Notes under the pieces: model-generated
The model's input: the letters and a program-made list of their open reading frames with translations, nothing else
Databases searched by the model: none
What the model was told of the DNA's origin: nothing
Shown: piece after piece, positions 15,751-63,685 of the stretch
How the letters are laid out: each line of letters begins with the position of its first letter
Position numbering within the stretch: position 1 is the first letter of the stretch
Position numbers and translations under genes: made by a program
DNA from: Octopus sinensis
Taxonomy: Eukaryota
Direction of reading: 5' to 3'
Assembly: GCF_006345805.1 (NCBI RefSeq)
Contig: NC_043013.1
Span: forward strand, 22,878,001 to 22,942,000
DNA length: 64,000 nt

Positions 15751-16310
15751 GGCAGCGAGCTGGCAGAATCGTTAGCACGCCGGGCGAAATGCGTAGCCGT
15801 ATTTCGTCTGTCGTTACGTTGTGAGTTTAAATTCCGCCGAGGTCGACTTTGCAGGGTCGATAAATTAAGTACCAGTTACGCACTGGGGTCGATCTAATCG
15901 ACTTAATACTTATGTCTGTCCTTGTTTATCCCCTCTATGTTTAGCCCCTTGTGGGTAATAAAGAAATAGGTATTTCGTCTGCCGTTACGTTCTGAGTTCA
16001 AATTCCGCCGAGGTCGACTTTGCCTTTCATCCTTTCGGGGTCAATAAATTAAGTACCAGTTACCCACTGGGGTCGATATAATCGGCCTAAACCGTTTGTC
16101 TGTCCTTGTTTATCCCCTCTGTGTTTAGCCCCTTGTTGGTAGTAAAGAAACAGGTATTTCGCCCGTTGCTACGTTCTGAATTCAAATGCCGCAGGTGTCA
16201 ACTTCGACTTTCATCCTTTTCGAGAGTTGATAAATAAAGTACCATTTACACACTGGGTTCGACTGACTTAACCCTTTCCCCGAAATAACAGTGCCAAAAT
16301 TTGAAAACTT
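15749..16310 (+). mobile_element. Family-1 SINE multimer (one full head plus two head-less repeats)
   Basis: Unit restarts at ggtatttcg after each aaagaaa(t/c)ag tail (15969, 16153). Confidence 0.88.
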
Positions 16311-21774: not shown

Positions 21775-22360
21775 ATCTATGTCTTTATTGCCCACAGGGG
21801 GCTAAACATGGAGGGGACAAACAAGGACAGACAAGGGATTAAGTCGATTAGATCGACCCCAGTACATAACTGGTACATATTTAATCGGCCCCGAAAGGAT
21901 GAAAGACAAACTCGACCTCGGCGGAATTTGAACTCAGAACGTAACGGTAGACGAAATAACTATTTCTTTACTACCCACAAGGGTCAAAACACAGAGAGGA
22001 CAAACAAACGGATCAAGTCGATTATATCGACACCAGTTCGTAACTGGTACTTATTTAATCGACCCCGGAAGGATGAAAGGCAAAGTTGACCTCAGCAGAA
22101 TTTGAACTCAGAACGTAACGGTAGACGAAATACCTATTTCTTTACTACTCACAAGGGGCAAAACACAGAGGACAAACAAGGACAAACGGATCAAATTGAT
22201 TATATCGACCCCAGTGCGTAACTGGTACTTATTTAATCGACCCCGAAAGGATGAAAAGCAAAGTCGACCTCGGCGGAATTTGAACTCAGAACGTAGCGGC
22301 AGACGAAATACCGCTAAGCATTTCGCCCGGCGTGCTAACGTTTCTGCCAGCTCGCCGCCT
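21775..22360 (-). mobile_element. Family-1 SINE trimer
   Basis: Three successive tail plus central units with a single tRNA-like head at ~22310-22360. Confidence 0.88.
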
Positions 22361-24040: not shown

Positions 24041-25414
24041 TTTTTTTTTTCTTCTTTCAAATTTGCTTCCATTTCTTGCCGAGTGTCTTCCCGACTCCTA
24101 GGGCAAAGAAACTCATAGTATACATTGGTAGGCCATTAAACCAAACTCAATAGTTCGTTCATTTTTTTATTTTTTTTTTTAAGTTAAATTAAAATACATG
24201 AGCAGCAACAGTTCTCACATCGACAATGCTCTTCTCAATACGTGTGATGTACCAGTTAAGACAATCTTTTGCACTTCTTGCAGGGATGGTAAGCCAGGGA
24301 TCATTCTCATATAATTTTCGGTTCCCTTCTTGATCATTCCTAGTGCTCCTACGATCACTGGTATTGTAACCGCCTTGAGATGCCACATTTTCTCAATTTC
24401 AATGAGTAGGTCTTTATATTTTCTGAGCTTGTCAAACTCTTTCGCTGAGATATTATGATCACAGGGAATGCTCATGTCGATCAATAAGAAAACTTTATTG
24501 TTTTGGTCTTTCACAACAATATCTGGTTTATTGGCCTTGATGGTTCGGTCTGTATGTACTGGAAAGTCCCACAGAATGGTTACATTTTCTCCTTCAGTTA
24601 CAGCCTCAGGGTGGTGATTATAGCACTTGTCGGCAGTTTTGATATTGTAATGCCGACTTATTAGCCAGTGGAGATATTGGCCAACTCTGTCATGTCTTAA
24701 TTTATACTCCACTGGTGCTAAGACTTTACATCCAGAGATTAGGTGGTCCACTGTTTCAATCATGTCGTTGCAGAATCGGCGGCATTTTGGGTCTGCTCCA
24801 TTTTTCATCACATTGGCCTGGTAGTTCCGGGTTAATAGGCTTTGATCTTGAGCAGCCAGGATGAAACCTTCGCTCTCTGCTTTTAGCCCTGAGCTCCGTA
24901 GCCACTGATGGTTTTGCTTCTGGTCAACATCAGCTTGTTTGCTGCGGGCCACATTTGCCGTGCAGAGGTTTCTCCTCCCAACTATCAGCCAATTGCTCGT
25001 GCGCTTTTTTCATTGCCATCATTTTCACCTTCTTTGCAACAATAGTTGCCGTACTTCCCTCGGGTTGTTCAGTTTGGGTATCCTGCCGAGATCAATAGCA
25101 AATTTTTTGCTTTCCTTTATGATAGAATGAAGCTTCTTCGTCTCTCGTGATTTTCCACGAGCTTTAGCATCCAGTCATTCGATATTCGAGATATTTGGCC
25201 AGTCCAATTGTGGTTGTTTTGTAAGCTAGTTCAAATTGGATCAGCCTCGACCTCCTTGGGCTCTGGGAAGGTAAAGGCGATCTACGTCTGCCTTTGGGTG
25301 GTGCATCCTATTACAACTCAGCAGCTTGCGTATTTTCCTATCTATATTCTTTACTTCACTCATATTCCAGTTCAACACATTGTAGCTATAAGTAACAACT
25401 GGAACTGCTAAGGA

Positions 25415-25717: not shown

Positions 25718-26022
25718 CAAAATAATTTATTCCACCTTTAATTTATGAATAGTTTATTCATATCTGCAAATGAAACAAGTGGAACACGAGGAAACTATCG
25801 ATGGTTTATCACGGGGAGTATTAAGTATAAAAAGTCCTTAGAAATGAATAAATTCCTGATGGCAAAATAATTTATTCCACCTTTAATTTATGAATAGTTT
25901 ATTCATATCTGCAAATGAAACAAGTGGAACTCGAGGAAACTATCGATGGTTTATCACGGGGAGTATTAAGTATAAAAAGTCCTTAGAAATGAATAAATTC
26001 CTGATGGCAAAATAATTTATTC
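25718..26022. repeat. 145-bp tandem duplication
   Basis: Units start at 25718 and 25863 (one substitution seen); caaaataatttattc recurs at 26008. Confidence 0.95.
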
Positions 26023-35537: not shown

Positions 35538-36791
35538 TTGGGTCATCTATAAATAATGTGGATGTTTATACTTCTTTTATTTTCCAAAATTATGATAAAC
35601 GAAGTTTTTTTTAATCTAAAATATACTCTCCTTCATTTCCTACAATGTTCTTCAATCTATCTGGTAGACTTGCAAGGCCCCTCTTCCAAAATTCATTTAT
35701 CCGTCACTAAAAATACTCTTCCAGTATTGTTCTGACCTCGTCTACAGAATTCATATTTTTCTCGTCCAAATGATTTTGAAGATTGCGGAATAAATGATAA
35801 TCAGTTGGGACAATGTCCGGCGAATATGGTGGATGGGGCAGCGTTTCCCATTCAAACTGTTCCAGCCTTTGGAATGTCATCCTCGCTGTATGTGGCCAAG
35901 CATTATCCTGATGGAAGAACACCTTTCGTCTTGAAACCAGAAATGGTCGTTTTTCTTCTAGTGCTGACTTAAGCCACTCAAGCTGCTCGCAGCAGATCTC
36001 CTTTGCTATCATTCGGTTTGGGTTTAAAAGTTCAATGCGGACTAAACCTTTTATATTCCACCAAACAGATAACAACACCTCACATGGGTGAAGACCTTTA
36101 GCCTTGGGTGCCGGTTTTTCCCCTCTCGGCGCTTGACATTTTTTATAGAGAACCTATTTCTCGTCATCAGTCACTATTCGGTGAAAAAAAAAAGGTCCAT
36201 TAGTGAGACGAGACAACAGAGAAGAGCATACATTCACTCTCTGCGCGCGATTAGAGTCGGAAAGTTTGTGAGGCACTCTTTGACTCGGTCTGCTGACTTT
36301 TCCGATGGCAGGCAGGTGTCGATGAATGGTTGAATGGCCAAATCCAAGCCTCTCTGCTAGTTCCTCAACAGTTACAATGGGATTTTGTTCCAGCGGGCTT
36401 TGCAGGACGTCTTCGTCGAACTCTACAGACCTTCCAGGACGAGGCTCGTCTTCTAGGCTCGGAATTCCTGGAACCACTATTGACACTGGCTTACACTTCT
36501 TGTCCGATCCCCAAACACTGCATTAATATTCCTCGCACTTTCCGTTGCGTTGTTGCCTTTATTGAACTCATAAAGTAAAATATGCAGAATGTGCTCCTTT
36601 GTCACTTCCATTATAGCTTCGAAAGAATAACAGTTAAAATCTGCACTCTTCAAACCTTTCACTAAGAATAAGTACAAGGTGAAATTACTACCTGCTTTTG
36701 TAGCAAGTCGATACGGGTAGTTTATCCCGTCTCCCTCTAACATTTAGTTCATGCAATTGAAAAGAACCGCATTATTCATGGGATGACCAAA
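35538..36791 (-). mobile_element. Full-length (~1.25 kb) but frameshifted mariner with TIRs and TA target duplication
   Basis: TIRs ttgggtcatctataaataatgtgg / ccgcattattcatgggatgaccaaa flanked by TA; ORF pieces 36477-36743, 36154-36486 and 35707-36078 give HTH, IVTDDEK, HQDNA and PYSPDIVPTDYHLF (D,D34D). Confidence 0.95.
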
Positions 36792-47859: not shown

Positions 47860-48130
47860 AAATTATACCATAAACCTAATCAATACCTCAGATATTTTAG
47901 CATAGACACTACAATAAGCCTAATCAATACCCCAGAGGCATTAACAAAGACTCCAATTACCATAAATCTACCTTCGATAGTGTAATAAAAGGCATATCTA
48001 TCCGGATATCTGATCTCTTGGCCACAGAGGAAATCTTCAATAACCACGCTACATACTATAACCAGGCGCTCTCTGGCAGCGGCTTCCCCCAGCAAATTGA
48101 ATTCATGGCAAGCACCAGGCTTAAAAAAAC
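47860..48130 (+). mobile_element. Penelope-like RT thumb fragment
   Basis: HYNKPNQYPRGINKDSNYHKSTFDSVIKGISIRISDLLATEEIFNNHATYYNQALSGSGF resembles PLE Y.KP....YI...SNH......I...IS.RIS.LS...EIF......YN.AL..SG. Confidence 0.7.
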
Positions 48131-48339
48131 ACACTGCTAAACTCAGTCCCCAAGTGTCACGCCCCACTACTGGGCAAATAAGCCATTCCACTATACATAG
48201 ACAAACTAAAACACCCGCTAGAAACTTGGAAGGACTTCGGGTAAGACACTCTCGTCAGCCCTATGCCCACCCGTATAACACCCGACCGAAACTTGTCAAG
48301 TTTTGGCACACGGCCAGCAAATTTGGGGACGGGGCTAGG

Positions 48340-48505: not shown

Positions 48506-48928
48506 AAGAACACCAATAAGATTAAGCAGAATTATTATATCCTGTGTTTCTTAAGGTTGTTGGATGTGAATTGAAGGAGATTTAGCTATAAAGTAAATCT
48601 GACCCCATAAAAACAAAGAAATCAGTGACAGGCAAAGTCTGTAACAATGTATATCTTCTTGAAAAGCTTAGTAACTACTATGCAGGAGCAAGAACTGAAT
48701 GTTCTTTGTCTATCTCCTTAACTTCTTGGAGATTTTAGGTATAATTATAGTAATGTGTCCATCTGTTCTAATTTAATTAAATTCTATGTTTTTGAGAAGC
48801 TGAAGATTGCTCTGCATCTTAAACTGATGTAATGATTGCATTGTTCAATTAAATGGAGTTGCATGAAATGATCGTACTGCATTACCTCTAGATATCTTTG
48901 TTGCTTATTTTGATTTTAATCATATATA

Positions 48929-48981
<53 letters not shown>

Positions 48982-49191
48982 GGCAAAAAAAAAAATTTTG
49001 TAGAATTTTTTGCCACCAGCGGCCTAGTGGGAAAAATTAAATAGTCATAGACCATTTTTAAGTTCAACATCAACAATCAAGGAACGGCCATAATAGGCCA
49101 TTCACCCACTAGAAATAACAGCCAAAGCTTCAACCGCAAATAAAAGTCAATTCCGTAAACAGGAGAAAATTTAAAAAACATTTACCCTGTA

Positions 49192-49298
49192 ATTTCTTAT
49201 ACGATGCACCGTTTCATCTGCTGTTTAATGGTAAACTAATCTGATTAAATTAAATCAAGCCAATCTTCCATAGGCCCTCAGATTCTTCAGTAAGAAAT
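49192..49298 (-). ncRNA. Type I hammerhead ribozyme A (long stem II), inverted copy
   Basis: Reverse complement of 49339-49445 with one substitution. Confidence 0.85.
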
Positions 49299-49338
49299 AG
49301 CCACAAGTCGGAACAGATATCTGTTCCGACTTGTGGCT

Positions 49339-49445
49339 ATTTCTTACTGAAGAATCTGAGGGCCTATGGAAGATTGGCTTGATTTAATTTAATCAGGTTA
49401 GTTTACCATTAAACAGCAGATGAAACGGTGCATCGTATAAGAAAT
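49339..49445 (+). ncRNA. Type I hammerhead ribozyme A (long stem II)
   Basis: auuucuua CUGAAGA aucug[long hairpin]cagau GAAA cggugcaucg UA uaagaaau; predicted cut after A49437. Confidence 0.88.
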
Positions 49446-49830
49446 TACAGGGTAAATGTTTTTTAAATTTTCTCCTGTTTACGGAATTGACTTTTATTTG
49501 CGGTTGAAGCTTTGGCTGTTATTTCTAGTGGGTGAATGGCCTATTATGGCCGTTCCTTGATTGTTGATGTTGAACTTAAAAATGGTCTATGACTATTTAA
49601 TTTTTCCCACTAGGCCGCTGGTGGCAAAAAAATTCTACAAAATTTTTTTTTGCCACCCTATATTGATTAATTATGAATTTTCTGGTTAATTCCGTAATGG
49701 AATCGACGGCTTATATTTATTTGCTGCCGATAAATTTGGCGCGAGTGCGATGATTTGAAAATTTTAGGTCAGATATTACCTTGGCAGGGTCGGAGATGCC
49801 TCGTGAAAATATATGTTCCGACTTGTGGCT

Positions 49831-49937
49831 ATTTCTTACTGAAGAATCTGAGGGCCTATGGAAGATTGGCTTGATTTAATTTAATCAGGTTAGTTTACCA
49901 TTAAACAGCAGATGAAACGGTGCATCGTATAAGAAAT
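49831..49937 (+). ncRNA. Type I hammerhead ribozyme A, second tandem copy
   Basis: Same sequence as 49339-49445, 492 bp downstream; predicted cut after A49929. Confidence 0.88.
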
Positions 49938-50056
49938 TACAGGGTAAATGTTTTTTAAATTTTCTCCTGTTTACGGAATTGACTTTTATTTGCGGTTGAA
50001 GCTTTGGCTGTTATTTCTAGTGGGTGAATGGCCTATTATGGCCGTTCCTTGATTGT

Positions 50057-50124
<68 letters not shown>

Positions 50125-50350
50125 GTATAATTAATCAGTTTAGGGTAGCAAAAAATTCAGTAAAAATTTATCGCTACCAGCGGCCTAGTGGAAAAGAGAA
50201 AATAGTCAAAGACTAAATATGTATAAATATAACAATTTAGGAATGGCCTAAACAGGCCATTCGTCCACCAGAAAGAGCAGCCAGAACTCCAACCGCCAAG
50301 TAGTGTAATTCGGAAATAAGGTGAAAATTTAAAAACATTTACCTAATTCA

Positions 50351-50451
50351 TCTTTTATACGATGCATCGTTTCAGTGTCTTTAATGATAGACCAGCTTAA
50401 TTAAATTAAATTAAGCTAGTCTACCATAGGTCACACTTCATCAGTAAAAGA
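50351..50451 (-). ncRNA. Type I hammerhead ribozyme B, inverted copy
   Basis: Reverse complement of 51207-51307. Confidence 0.87.
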
Positions 50452-50732
50452 AACCTGGGAGAGACGGATATACACGAGGCAACTGTATCAATGCCTCGGG
50501 AATATCTGTCTTAAAATTTTCAAGACCAACGCATTCGCGCCAAACTTATCGGCAGCAAATATAAACTGCCGATTCAATCTCAGAATTAGTCAGAAAATTA
50601 TCAATTAATCAATTTAGGGTAGCAAAAAATTCAGTAAAAATTTATCGCTACCAGCGGCCTAGTGGAAAAGAGAAAATAGTCAAAGACTAAATATGTATAA
50701 ATATAACAATTTAGGAATGGCCTAAACAGGTT

Positions 50733-50833
50733 TCTTTAACTGATGAAGTGTGACCTATGGTAGACTAGCTTAATTTAATTTAATTAAGCTGGTCTATCAT
50801 TAAAGACACTGAAACGATGCATCGTATAAAAGA
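50733..50833 (+). ncRNA. Type I hammerhead ribozyme B
   Basis: ucuuuaa CUGAUGA agugu[long hairpin]acacu GAAA cgaugcaucg UA uaaaaga; one stem I mismatch; predicted cut after A50826. Confidence 0.83.
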
Positions 50834-51206
50834 TGAATTAGGGTAAATGTTTTTAAATTTTCACCTTATTTCCGAATTACACTACTTGGCGGTTGGAGTT
50901 CTGGCTGCTCTTTCTGGTGGACGAATGGCCTGTTTAGGCCATTCCTAAATTGTTATATTTATACATATTTAGTCTTTGACTATTTTCTCTTTTCCACTAG
51001 GCCGCTGGTAGCGATAAATTTTTACTGAATTTTTTGCTACCCTAAATTGATTAATTGATAATTTTCTGACTAATTCTGAGATTGAATCGGCAGTTTATAT
51101 TTGCTGCCGATAAGTTTGGCGCGAATGCGTTGGTCTTGAAAATTTTAAGACAGATATTCCCGAGGCATTGATACAGTCGCCTCGTGTATATCCGTCTCTC
51201 CCAGGT

Positions 51207-51307
51207 TCTTTTACTGATGAAGTGTGACCTATGGTAGACTAGCTTAATTTAATTTAATTAAGCTGGTCTATCATTAAAGACACTGAAACGATGCATCGTA
51301 TAAAAGA
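51207..51307 (+). ncRNA. Type I hammerhead ribozyme B, second tandem copy
   Basis: ucuuuua CUGAUGA agugu...acacu GAAA cgaugcaucg UA uaaaaga; predicted cut after A51300. Confidence 0.88.
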
Positions 51308-51425
51308 TGAATTAGGGTAAATGTTTTTAATTTTCACCTTATTTCCGAATTACACTACTTGGCGGTTGGAGTTCTGGCTGCTCTTTCTGGTGGACGAATG
51401 GCCTGTTTAGGCCATTCCTAAATTG

Positions 51426-51473
<48 letters not shown>

Positions 51474-51951
51474 ATATACATACACACACACACACACACA
51501 CACACACCATACATACATATAAAGAAATATACAGAATTATCTGTAAGTGGAACAGTAAAAATATGCAATGCTTTTATTAAGTTTAAAATGTGACTGCGTT
51601 TCTGTAATCTCCATTCCAACGGTGAGGCTTTGTGTCTTTGTTTGAAACCCGCTTCTTCCTGAGAGGAAGAATTTAAATAATTGAAAACAGAAGAGATCAT
51701 CCATCCATAAATACATACATACTGACGTGCACACACACACAACACACACACCACACACATGGGTGCGGGCGCGTACACACCCACATATGTGAATATATCG
51801 CCTTCTGTTGAGAATAATTACCAAAACTCTCAGGAGACTAAAAAATATACAAACTTATTTAGATGTGCAGAAGCATATATAATAATGCTCAGGCGTGTGT
51901 GTTTTCTGGTTTTGTATGTATTTCTACGCATATATACATGTGTGTTTGTAT

Positions 51952-57969: not shown

Positions 57970-58600
57970 TCAGGTCATCCCATAAGTTTTGTTCGAATTT
58001 TAAATACAGAAAACAACTGATCAAATGTTATATTTAATTGAAATTTAATCATCAATGTACTTTCCCTGATTATCTATGACTTCCTTCCATCTATTTACAA
58101 GCTTTTTAATCCCATCAATGTAAAACTCATTTGGTTTCAAAGCGAAGAACTCTGAAATGTCGGTTTCGACCTTCTCCTGGCTTGAGAAAGTTATGTCTCC
58201 CAAATGATTCTGTAAACTACGAAACAAATGGTAGTCTGAAGGAGCAAGGTCGGGAGAATAAGGTGGATGAGGGATTTTTTCCCAACCAAGCTCTTCGATC
58301 TTCTGTGATGTGATCTCTGCAGTGTGGGGTCGCGCATTGTCCTGATGAAATACCACTCCTTTTCAATTCACTAAAGTGGGTCTTTTCTTCTTCAAAGCTT
58401 GGTTCAAACGCTCTAATTGCTGACAGTAGACTTAAGCATTGATTGTTGCATTTGGTGGTAATAATTCAAAGGGAATTACTCCTTTGTAATCCCACCAGAT
58501 AGAGAGAAGAGCCTTTTTTTCCCCTGAAGTTACCTTCTCGGTTGTGGTTGAGCTTTTCCCTTTTACCAAGTCACTGTTTACGACGTTTAACATTTGGATA
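57970..58600 (-). mobile_element. Mariner 3' half with one TIR, truncated by the adjacent retroelement
   Basis: TA|tcaggtcatcccataag TIR; ORF 58045-58356 FHQDNARPH...HPPYSPDLAPSDYHLF; upstream YPNVKRRKQ* and SIWWDYKG motifs. Confidence 0.92.
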
Positions 58601-60924: not shown

Positions 60925-62500
60925 TTATTTATTTATTAGTGAACACATCGTATACCATGTATGTATACATTCTTTCCTTTATGTTTGTGTACGTCACTGT
61001 TTTGTGTGTGTGTGCGTCGTTATTTGTAAGTTCCCCCTCTGGCGCTACTACTACACTCCAAACCTTTCCTCCCATGGACTAATTTACTCAACAATATCAA
61101 ATCTTATTAAAAGATAATGCCATTGTTTCCGGACTAAAAAAAAAAAACACTTTTTCAACTCCGAGCGGCCAACTAAACCCTTTAACCTCGTTTTTATCTT
61201 TATGCTCCAATGAACTCCATTTTCACAAACAATCTTTCATGGCTGCCCGACTCCCGAACCAATGCATCCACTCAGACACCAACCTACTGAATGACAAATT
61301 TAATTTATCAACCTTCATTTTGTTTCTAATCATGGAAACAGATTCTTATCTTTACACATTCCATCGATCTGGACCCAAACTCACACACTTCCCTGCAGCA
61401 TGAATACACACACACACTCAAACACACAAACACATTCACAGAAGCACACACACATATATACACACATACACACATCCCTCAGACAGACCTACACAATATC
61501 ACTATCTTCAATAAAGAAAAACGGAAATAAAATATAAGCAATCCAACATAACACGTTCGCACACAATATTGAATCTTCAAACTTTCGATGGCGAGAAATG
61601 CAACTTTTATTTCAAAATAATAATTAATAGCGACAGAAGGAGTATTATTAATACGAAAAGGTGATATTGGCCTTGCACTTAAAATGGATGTTGTGTTAGA
61701 ACACAGAATACTGCATCGATTTCCATGAGAGGACTTCGCATATGGTGCATAAAAATAATCCATTAGCGAAGACAGCCGCCTGGAATAAAAGTCGTAGCTG
61801 CAGGGAAATATCGAACACTCAAATAACCACAACGAAATTGTTACAATTCAAATATGTAGAGTTTCCCTCTTTCTTTGAGTTAACTGAAGCAGAAAAATAT
61901 GTTTGCAGCCATGCATTAATGTATATATGTATGCATGAATGCATGGATTTATACACGCATTAATAAATACGGGCATGCATATACACTAGTATATATGTAT
62001 AAAGCAATATTTATATATTAGGGATGTTTCGGGTTAAGCTTTATGAGTGCAGTTCTTAAAACAAAATATGTTCCTGTAGACAAAAAACATATATTCGAGT
62101 GTATATGCGTCGTATATATGCTTCGCCTGATTTGTTCAGCTATTTCGGTTCATTCGCTTCAGAGAAGAAAACTTCGTCTCGCTCCTGCCTACGAATTGTG
62201 TGCGTCAGACAAACTACTGCTGTGTACGTATGTTTAAATTCCTTGTATTCATCGATGTCTGGAGCGATTTTTATGTAATTATTTAAAATATATACCAGTC
62301 CAGACTTGTGTACTTCCCTGTAATATTTCAATTTACAAATGTTTCCATATATACAAAGCTCGAGACTGTCTACATTGCTGGAATACAAAGCAGTCACGTG
62401 ACAAATTCATTTTTATAGATCGAAAAGACATTGTGTTGCAGTTTTACGTGCTCTAACTTATGATATATACTTGTGTATATACACACACACACACACACAT

Positions 62501-63685
62501 ACATCACCTCGATGATGGTGATGCTGTTGACATCGTTTTATTGGACTTTGCCAAAGCTTTTGACTCGGTAAACCACCGCCTATTACTTGTCAAGCTTCAA
62601 GCATATAGTTTCCATCCAGATATTGTACGATGGGTTGGTGCCTTCCTCTCAGATCGCTCCTTCCAAGTCCAAGTTAATGGTTCGCTGTCCGACGTCTCCA
62701 GTGCGTACAGTGGCGTGCCTCAAGGTTCAGTGCTTGGGCCCTTATTGTTCTTTGTCTTCATAAATGACTTGCCCTACGACCTCACGCAACACACCCTTCT
62801 ATTTGCCGATGATGTCAAACTGGTCGCTCCTCGCGGTGATATAGAGGATCTTTGTCGGTGCCTCCACCAAGTTTGGAGATGGTCTAACGAATGGGACCTG
62901 TGTCTGAACGTGTCAAAGTGCTGTCATCTGCCTGTTGTCTCTTCTCCTGCAACTCAACTTGATTTCGAGCCGGGTCGTCTGCTGCTGGAGAGGACCGACC
63001 AGGTAAAGGACCTGGGTATCTTGGTGGATTCTTCCTTTTCGCCTTCGGCCCAGTGCGTCTATGCTGCCAACAAAGCACGCGGAGTTCTGTTTTTGATTCG
63101 ACGGTCATTCGCGATGCTCACAGCAGCCATATTCCTACCGCTCTATGTCACGCTGGTGAGACCCATATTGGAGTACGGGATTCAAACCTCTTCTCCTTAT
63201 CTCCTCAAAGACATACAGCATCTCCAGAAGCTGGCTACCCGCATGGTTCTTGGTCTCAAGCATTTGTCTTATGAAGAAAGGCTGAAGACGCTCGACCTTT
63301 ATTCTCTAGAAAAACGACGACGCCGTGGTGATCTCATTCTTGCTCACAACATCATAAGCGGAAAGTGTAATCTCTCGAAAGAGCTGTTCTTCACTCCTGC
63401 TCCAGAGCGTCGGCTGCGGGGTCACTCCGAAAAGCTCTATCTGGGACGATTTCATCTCAATCGAAGGAGAGGAGCTTTCTCCGTCCGGGTTGCGGATCTG
63501 TGGAATAAGCTGCCGGACGAGATAGTGAAGATGCCGACGACCGCTCGGTTCAAAGTCTCCCTTGACCACAAATGGCCTGAACTCTTTGCATGATCACCAC
63601 CCTGTACATAACTCCATGTCCCCCTACATGGCCTTGCTTTTTGCTTTTTGAGCCAAAAAATTAACTAACTAACTAACTAACTAAC
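62501..63685 (+). mobile_element. CR1-clade LINE, 5'-truncated, open RT frame, (CTAA)n tail
   Basis: ORF to 63593 with LDFAKAFDSV, SGVPQGSVLGPLLF, FADD, KDLG, LVRPILEY, LSYEERL..L.L.SLE.RR.RGDLI; the ORF-track start in (CA)n is spurious. Confidence 0.95.

Follow-up and report, generated by a model that had tools for sequence, protein, structure and literature searches.

Two sister families of short, hammerhead-bearing repeats, here called A and B, lie side by side in the window (the whole 64-kb stretch of DNA that was analysed), and both very probably work as passengers of Penelope-like elements (PLEs). On balance, their copies are probably independent insertions into (TA)n tracts, made by a resident Neptune-type enzyme that rolls around a monomer circle and copies it from two priming sites. 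A more detailed version of this reading is offered tentatively, since it falls a little short of probable. Here, a dimeric, telomerase-related Penelope reverse transcriptase (RT)/endonuclease would use two fixed sites about 100 nt apart on one ribozyme-made circle to prime the two strands of a (TA)n target, and would roll around that circle twice, independently.

Layout and ribozymes of the two elements

Elements A and B are each a two-armed inverted insertion bounded by (TA)n tracts. Their parts are as follows, in window coordinates.

48922..48977, no strand: (TA)n target tract, left flank of element A
48973..49320, minus: element A inverted arm, monomer positions 372-492, then 1-226
49192..49298, minus: type I hammerhead, family A (strict scan), predicted cut after 49200
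49317..50060, plus: element A direct arm, monomer positions 372-492, 1-492, 1-131
49339..49445, plus: type I hammerhead A1 (strict scan), predicted cut after 49437
49438..49929, plus: family A monomer, cut-to-cut, 492 nt, 36% GC, predicted circular RNA
49831..49937, plus: type I hammerhead A2 (strict scan), predicted cut after 49929
50059..50121, no strand: (TA)n tract flanking both A and B
50126..50730, minus: element B inverted arm, positions 103-474, then 1-~232, long 3' end
50351..50451, minus: type I hammerhead, family B (strict scan), predicted cut after 50358
50727..51427, plus: element B direct arm, positions 376-474, 1-474, 1-~127
50734..50833, plus: type I hammerhead B1, canonical core with CUGA at 50741, predicted cut after 50826
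50827..51300, plus: family B monomer, cut-to-cut, 474 nt, 36% GC
51207..51307, plus: type I hammerhead B2 (strict scan), predicted cut after 51300
51427..51482, no strand: (TA)n tract, right flank of element B

The two arms of element A meet head-to-head at 49318/49319, with a 4-nt overlap. Its direct arm has a short 3' end, at 50060, and its inverted arm a long one, which stops about 11 nt short of the usual position 237 and merges with TA. The insertion-end sites of family A are monomer positions 131 and 237, each directly preceded by a conserved hairpin. The direct arm of element B also carries the short 3' end, again merging with TA. A and B most likely lie next to each other because one (TA)n tract received two separate insertions.

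The initial annotation described two non-coding monomers of 492 and 474 nt, homologous but diverged, with near-identical copies within each family and same-strand hammerheads one monomer apart. This description holds: the monomers share 367 identities over 468 aligned positions (78%; 74% over 498 columns), neither contains an ORF of 100 aa, window copies are 97.6-99.6% identical within a family, and the paired cuts fall at 49437/49929 and 50826/51300. The accompanying statement that each monomer is present as more than one tandem unit stands as far as the spacing of same-strand cores is concerned, but it missed the two-armed inverted form, in which each window arm holds only 0.7-1.5 monomers. 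Folded as circles, the monomers are predicted to be 62% paired, with z-scores of -5.1 (A) and -7.6 (B) relative to 40 shuffled sequences per family.

When the window was scanned on both strands for strict type I hammerheads, five motifs were found, every one within the A/B region; each of 20 shuffled windows gave none. The sixth of the six cores first annotated (B1, cut 50826) is canonical as well, and was missed by the scan because of an A-A mismatch in stem I adjoining the core. The ribozymes have a stem I of 7-8 bp (8 bp in A1), a stem II of ~65-70 nt that contains an inner hairpin, and a stem III of 4 bp closed by a palindromic loop. All these features are seen in A1, including the long stem II. 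The active fold is predicted to lie 1.0-1.5 kcal/mol above the minimum-energy fold. Across 17 aligned copies picked for diversity, which are related sequences and those from which the structure itself was drawn, 96.7% of cells in the hammerhead and end-proximal helices pair, against 30-51% in slid controls, and 10 of 62 pairs, three of them in stem I, show double-sided changes. Because the aligned rows are related, this covariation is counted as supportive and not as a probability. Rfam, whose hammerhead models the initial annotation had proposed as a check, gave no match in the 64-kb window at gathering thresholds, probably because a stem II of this length falls outside those models.

Several other features of the monomers and the window are recorded here. 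The most conserved block of both monomers (window 49735-49759; A 298-322, B 289-314) holds what we take to be an E2F-type site followed by a CHR-type hexamer, at a spacing longer than that of the usual CDE/CHR; it could be a cell-cycle or germline promoter. A 78-aa open stretch (47901-48134, plus strand), which presumably resembles the C-terminal segment of a Penelope/Naiad RT, gave no significant Pfam match and no tblastn match with two Neptune ORFs. Ordinary transposon remnants lie at 62460-63590 (plus), 24218-25009 (minus), 35707-36522 (minus) and 58045-58362 (minus). One is an RT of LINE type (Pfam RVT_1, E 8.7e-22), another is a non-LTR fragment whose zf-RVT match falls below cut-off, and the remaining two we assume to be mariner-like transposase fragments. 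Other short tandem repeats, at 15853-16262, 21777-22312 and 25718-26022 (units of 184, 174 and 145 nt), contained no motif in the strict hammerhead scan.

Genome-wide copies and insertion anatomy

In the 2.72 Gb of genome searched, an exact stem III motif has 3,324 matches and a second conserved motif 3,097, while controls have none. The first 72 Mb of contig C1 contain 51 loci identified by these motifs, which extrapolates to ~1,900 insertions genome-wide on the assumption of even density. A first look gave 797 candidates for A and 1,872 for B; the best 39 and 40, respectively, were scored. The loci fetched comprised 77 best-matching ones, biased to full monomers, a position-ordered sample from contig C1, and 11 singleton motif matches. 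The singletons were considered as possible ends of autonomous elements, and all 11 proved to be short non-autonomous insertions. Copies of A and B are scattered over many contigs as dimers to multimers, and not in satellite blocks. Several subfamilies are recognised because identity to the window monomers is mostly 84-100%.

The initial annotation took A and B to be recent, non-autonomous elements, and proposed a genome-wide check of whether copies stand alone or are attached to a Penelope ORF. Copies are indeed dispersed, and nothing besides monomer sequence was found inside the insertions at any of 118 loci. At none of these loci is an RT plus GIY-YIG ORF contiguous with an A/B repeat. The evidence supports A and B as young, dispersed, non-autonomous hammerhead elements, and not the pLTRs of an ORF-bearing copy.

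Sequence of family A also occurs in sequencing runs. A stretch of A is contained in 20 of the 22 runs listed, 14 of which are RNA by guess only and none by record; these runs (X1-X20) fall under four organism codes, with shares of 0.36-0.91. In four runs, contigs reach all 29 bins and span the cut, although such contigs are blind to strand, ends and circularity, and tandem DNA yields identical joints. Some contigs of run X1 match the hammerhead at ~90% and then diverge, which suggests further sister families elsewhere; a motif from one divergent contig end is absent from the genome.

Insertion anatomy was read from 107 loci: 74 simple two-armed head-to-head insertions and, outside these, 25 one-armed and 8 complex ones, with two partly covered C1 loci left out. 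Outer 3' ends cluster at two distances from the cut: ~131 and ~237 in A, and ~127-131 and 229-234 in B. Both sites directly follow a conserved hairpin and merge with (TA)n. An apparent B short end at 142-145 in the alignment was discarded as an artefact of a TA run, since the sequence reads ~127-131. A short end is paired with a long end in 69 of the 74 two-armed loci; the remainder are two short-short, no long-long and three unclassifiable. Pairing of this kind in 69 of 71 classifiable loci has p ~1e-18 under independent choice. The same pairing is seen in all nine additional two-armed loci among the 11 extra loci, and a tiny inverted stub of the long end is present in 6 of 18 short-ended one-armed loci. 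The distance between short and long ends corresponds to a tail of ~100-106 nt, and (TA)4 occurs on both flanks in 63 of the 74. Fixed ends, inverted arms and (TA)n targets are the integration signature of Penelope.

The two arms differ freely in length. Their medians are 790 and 744 nt, the lengths are uncorrelated (rho 0.13, p 0.30, n=69), 37 of 69 loci have more than one monomer in each arm, and either arm may be the longer by several units. Arm sizes range from <1 to >17 units, with locus L040 crossing the cut site up to 17 times. Inner ends are spread uniformly along the monomer: 15 of 189 lie within 12 nt of the cut, against 9.7 expected, an excess that is not significant in family A or B. 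Bases are inserted at 26 of 74 junctions, and 48% of the other 48 show an overlap of ≥3 nt, against 11% by chance. Most junctions link unrelated monomer positions; a few are symmetric (window A at 372/372, L050 and L070).

Potential enzymes are resident in the genome. A GIY-YIG search gave 5,029 candidates, of which the best 150 were scored, and many endonuclease matches were near-identical, suggesting recent activity. Intact ORFs of 781 aa (L197) and 775 aa (L178) contain an RT, a C-x4-C-x2-C linker and a C-terminal endonuclease. They are called Neptune-type because of this linker, with Nematis as the alternative. Intact or near-intact Neptune-type families (L197:1032-3374, L178, L179 and L101; the 781- and 775-aa ORFs are 47% identical) target (TA)n and carry hammerhead-like cores close to their 3' ends. 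In the 781-aa family, the two end sites are ~40 nt apart and abut (TA)n; all 3/3 loci that show both inverted ends pair a long with a short one. Downstream of a Neptune fragment at L103 (minus strand, ~540-655) lies an unrelated hammerhead-like core, which has an AT-rich loop and a stem II of similar length. Mobilisation by a Penelope RT, as the initial annotation supposed, is supported by the Penelope signature at the insertion ends, but not by a homologous autonomous partner: 50 GIY-YIG endonuclease loci (30 + 20, by BLAST and a two-sequence profile) show no homology to A or B. The best match (37 nt, AT-rich, E 0.018) was taken as chance. No resident Neptune family is assigned as their source, there being no pLTR or 3'-end homology in these 50 loci, which are a small sample.

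Haplotypes, template and rival explanations

Variation among units bears on the template from which the arms were copied. No count includes indels, and those of unit variants and fixed differences leave out sites next to homopolymers; the assembly is indel-rich within arrays, and some singleton variants may be errors. Substitutions per site in A amount to 0.0076 within an arm, 0.0082 between arms and 0.0258 between insertions, and in B to 0.0029, 0.0028 and 0.0180. Units of one insertion are therefore ~3-6x closer to one another than to those of other insertions, and the two arms are no further apart than units of a single arm. Not one fixed difference separates the arms in 30 arm pairs (8,778 sites), whereas different insertions differ by a median of 3 (A) or 6 (B). 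Alleles fixed in other loci occur in all units in 155 of 180 cases for A and 105 of 107 for B, and haplotypes fall into at least 17 groups in A (39 loci) and at least 14 in B (25 loci).

Not much inheritance of unit-specific variants between loci is seen beyond chance. In family A, 35 such variants are common to different insertions, against 25±5 by chance, and close pairs are not enriched in them (6/118 vs 28/623); in family B there is one, against 1.8 by chance. Arrays of 8-11 units can show 0-0.06% internal divergence, and array size is not correlated with internal divergence. The cut-site junction reads the commonest 8 nt in 250 of 281 cases in A and 159 of 173 in B, the others being mostly subfamily stem variants. 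Both start sites are downstream of the cut, but arms extend upstream across it, nearly always without a scar and with no significant pile-up. The template was therefore continuous there, either as a circle or as an uncleaved multimer. The many differing pure arrays point to a one-monomer bottleneck followed by re-multimerisation, and rolling-circle copying would supply both.

Some variants are nevertheless common to several units. This applies to 47 of 201 within-locus unit-level variants. With the duplicated loci L041, L066 and L077 excluded, doubletons are adjacent in 12 cases (8.8 expected), non-adjacent in 19 (20.0) and across arms in 10 (12.2). Counted from the outer ends, no more than 2 of those 10 share a register. 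One arm of L082 has a period-3 variant pattern. At L041, L066, L077 and L150/L152, the whole two-armed insertion is repeated nearby with an identical inner junction, which reflects either local duplication or an assembly artefact. The unit-shared variants, the period-3 arm and three whole duplications point to some DNA-level exchange or assembly cross-talk, which could be the source of part of the array purity. Nine loci (L021, L025, L029, L032, L033, L035, L045, L056 and L170) carry private variants that a single unit in each of the two inverted arms has in common, with no consistent register between arms. These may stem from gene conversion, from a modified template base that was misread repeatedly, or from cross-talk during polishing.

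A rolling-circle route would run as follows. Tandem transcripts would be cut by their hammerheads into 492- and 474-nt monomers, as structure and covariation suggest, and a host ligase would close these into circles, by analogy with coral, mussel and axolotl retrozymes. A putative GIY-YIG/RT protein would bind the region after the cut and prime one target strand at ~130 and the other at ~235, where the ends are observed; both DNA strands would be nicked. Each RT would then circle the template and stop at random, rolling being proposed to account for the observed arm lengths. Finally, the two cDNA ends would be joined head-to-head, often by microhomology, a pathway suggested by the observed junctions.

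Several observations count against a circular template. A single haplotype in both arms equally fits two RNAs from one source locus, and no A/B-homologous autonomous partner is present in the 50 endonuclease loci. The anole Poseidon protein uses unprocessed RNA in vitro, and its start site shows no strand difference (PMC11167929), and cleavage was seen in only 1/9 Xenopus retrozyme dimers (bioRxiv 10.64898/2026.07.22.740005). The variants common to several units and the L082 pattern also weigh against a circle, and speak for an uncleaved linear multimer integrated by the same chemistry, its arrays re-lengthened and homogenised later by DNA-level duplication and gene conversion. The dispensability of hammerhead cleavage for anole Poseidon in vitro (PMC11167929) and the duplicated whole insertions at L041, L066 and L077 fit that account too. 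It is nonetheless unlikely, if a serious contender: unit-specific variants are not handed between loci, doubletons are placed like random pairs with few cross-arm ones in register, array size is unrelated to internal divergence, and compensatory changes keep the hammerhead helices.

The monomer bottleneck and single-haplotype arrays would also follow from a cleaved linear monomer if the RT, on reaching the 5' end of its template, repeatedly jumped to the 3' end of that or a sister monomer. End-to-end template jumping is known for R2-type RTs. The almost always seamless cut-site junction and the lack of a significant excess of arm ends at the cut make this improbable. Fold-back self-priming of the first cDNA or of an antisense template could generate the inverted arm, would account for identical haplotypes across arms, and agrees with the few symmetric junctions; it was proposed for Penelope head-to-head repeats from junction palindromes (PMC3846280). 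It predicts tightly linked arm lengths, and is disfavoured, to the point of being very improbable, because arm lengths are independent; most junctions also link unrelated positions. Just as doubtful is the idea that A and B derive from an autonomous Penelope family, as its pLTRs or 3' fragments, or are satellite DNA with a chance ribozyme. Their geometry (ribozyme, 3' end and tail) is that of a pLTR and the locus sample is small, but 118 of 118 loci hold monomer sequence only, Neptune-like protein matches (5 of 138 locus records) all lie outside the insertions, and copies with fixed ends are dispersed across many contigs without forming satellite blocks.

Relation to known elements and significance

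A and B belong to a described class, the animal non-LTR retrozymes, and their existence is ordinary in an invertebrate genome. Cleavage and circles have been shown for metazoan retrozymes of coral, mussel and axolotl, and mobilisation by PLEs from circular RNA has been proposed (Cervera and de la Pena 2020, PMC7229834). Like these elements, A and B are non-coding tandem units of <45% GC with one type I hammerhead each, and, as in mussel and axolotl, two sister ribozyme families share one genome. The predicted self-pairing of the A/B monomer is a further likeness to elements for which a circular RNA template and PLE mobilisation are proposed. Circles are demonstrated for the retrozymes of PMC7229834 and only predicted for A and B. 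The monomers reported in that paper are 170-400 nt, whereas A and B have 474-492 nt and a stem II of ~65-70 nt. The size of A and B, which the initial annotation put above that of most described monomers, is ordinary all the same: published retrozyme families, which are related to pLTRs, span 51-972 bp (Li, Clavereau and Pollet, bioRxiv 10.64898/2026.07.22.740005). That study favours local tandem amplification.

Insertion ends, inverted arms, (TA)n targets and per-insertion haplotypes are not mapped in the available parts of PMC7229834 or bioRxiv 10.64898/2026.07.22.740005, and the word ‘inverted’ has no occurrence in the main text of the former. The available part of the octopus repeat paper PMC13282606 contains no mention of ribozymes or retrozymes. 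Neither the A/B families nor an analysis of retrozymes by insertion end and haplotype was found in a literature sample that included few subscription papers and no supplements.

In the form of their insertions, A and B resemble EN+ Penelope-like elements. Neptune-clade insertions go into microsatellites, carry a tail of 30-40 bp and have truncated arms in inverted orientation (Craig et al. 2021, PMC8557442); a tail on one of the inverted pLTRs has also been noted, and self-priming proposed (PMC3846280). The Poseidon PAc protein nicks AT-rich DNA on both strands and extends each of them; on the RNA it starts at two internal sites, which lie downstream of the hammerhead and delimit the tail (Frangieh et al. 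2024, PMC11167929). Partial tandems, an inverted 5'-truncated arm, a tail on one inverted end, an AT-rich or microsatellite target, and a hammerhead upstream of two internal start sites are likewise found in A and B. They differ in lacking an ORF, in a tail of ~100-106 nt instead of 30-40, in the absence of homology to any resident Neptune 3' region sampled, and in a near-strict short/long pairing, whereas PAc shows no strand difference in vitro (PMC11167929). Chlamys MRC1 (Craig et al. 2021) offers a parallel as a non-autonomous PLE passenger with pLTRs and multicopy head-to-tail insertions. The Chlamys elements match autonomous partners at the 3' end, while no such homology was found for A and B in the 50 loci, and most of them are without canonical hammerheads, which A and B possess.

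A and B bear on how Penelope-like tandem and inverted insertions arise, and on what the hammerheads of these elements are for. Circular templates have been proposed for PLE tandems (PMC4209133) and for retrozymes (PMC7229834), but cleavage is dispensable in the only in vitro system (PMC11167929). The A/B footprints are countable, as paired start sites, one haplotype per insertion and independent arm lengths, and the short RNA suits tests of circular against linear templates with an intact resident Neptune protein. If the tentative reading of one circle and two independent rolls is true, A and B would be direct genomic evidence that circular RNA is the real template of PLE-type retrotransposition. 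They would also be minimal passengers, ~480 nt long, for multimeric insertion into microsatellites, with no visible homology to the enzyme's own RNA needed.
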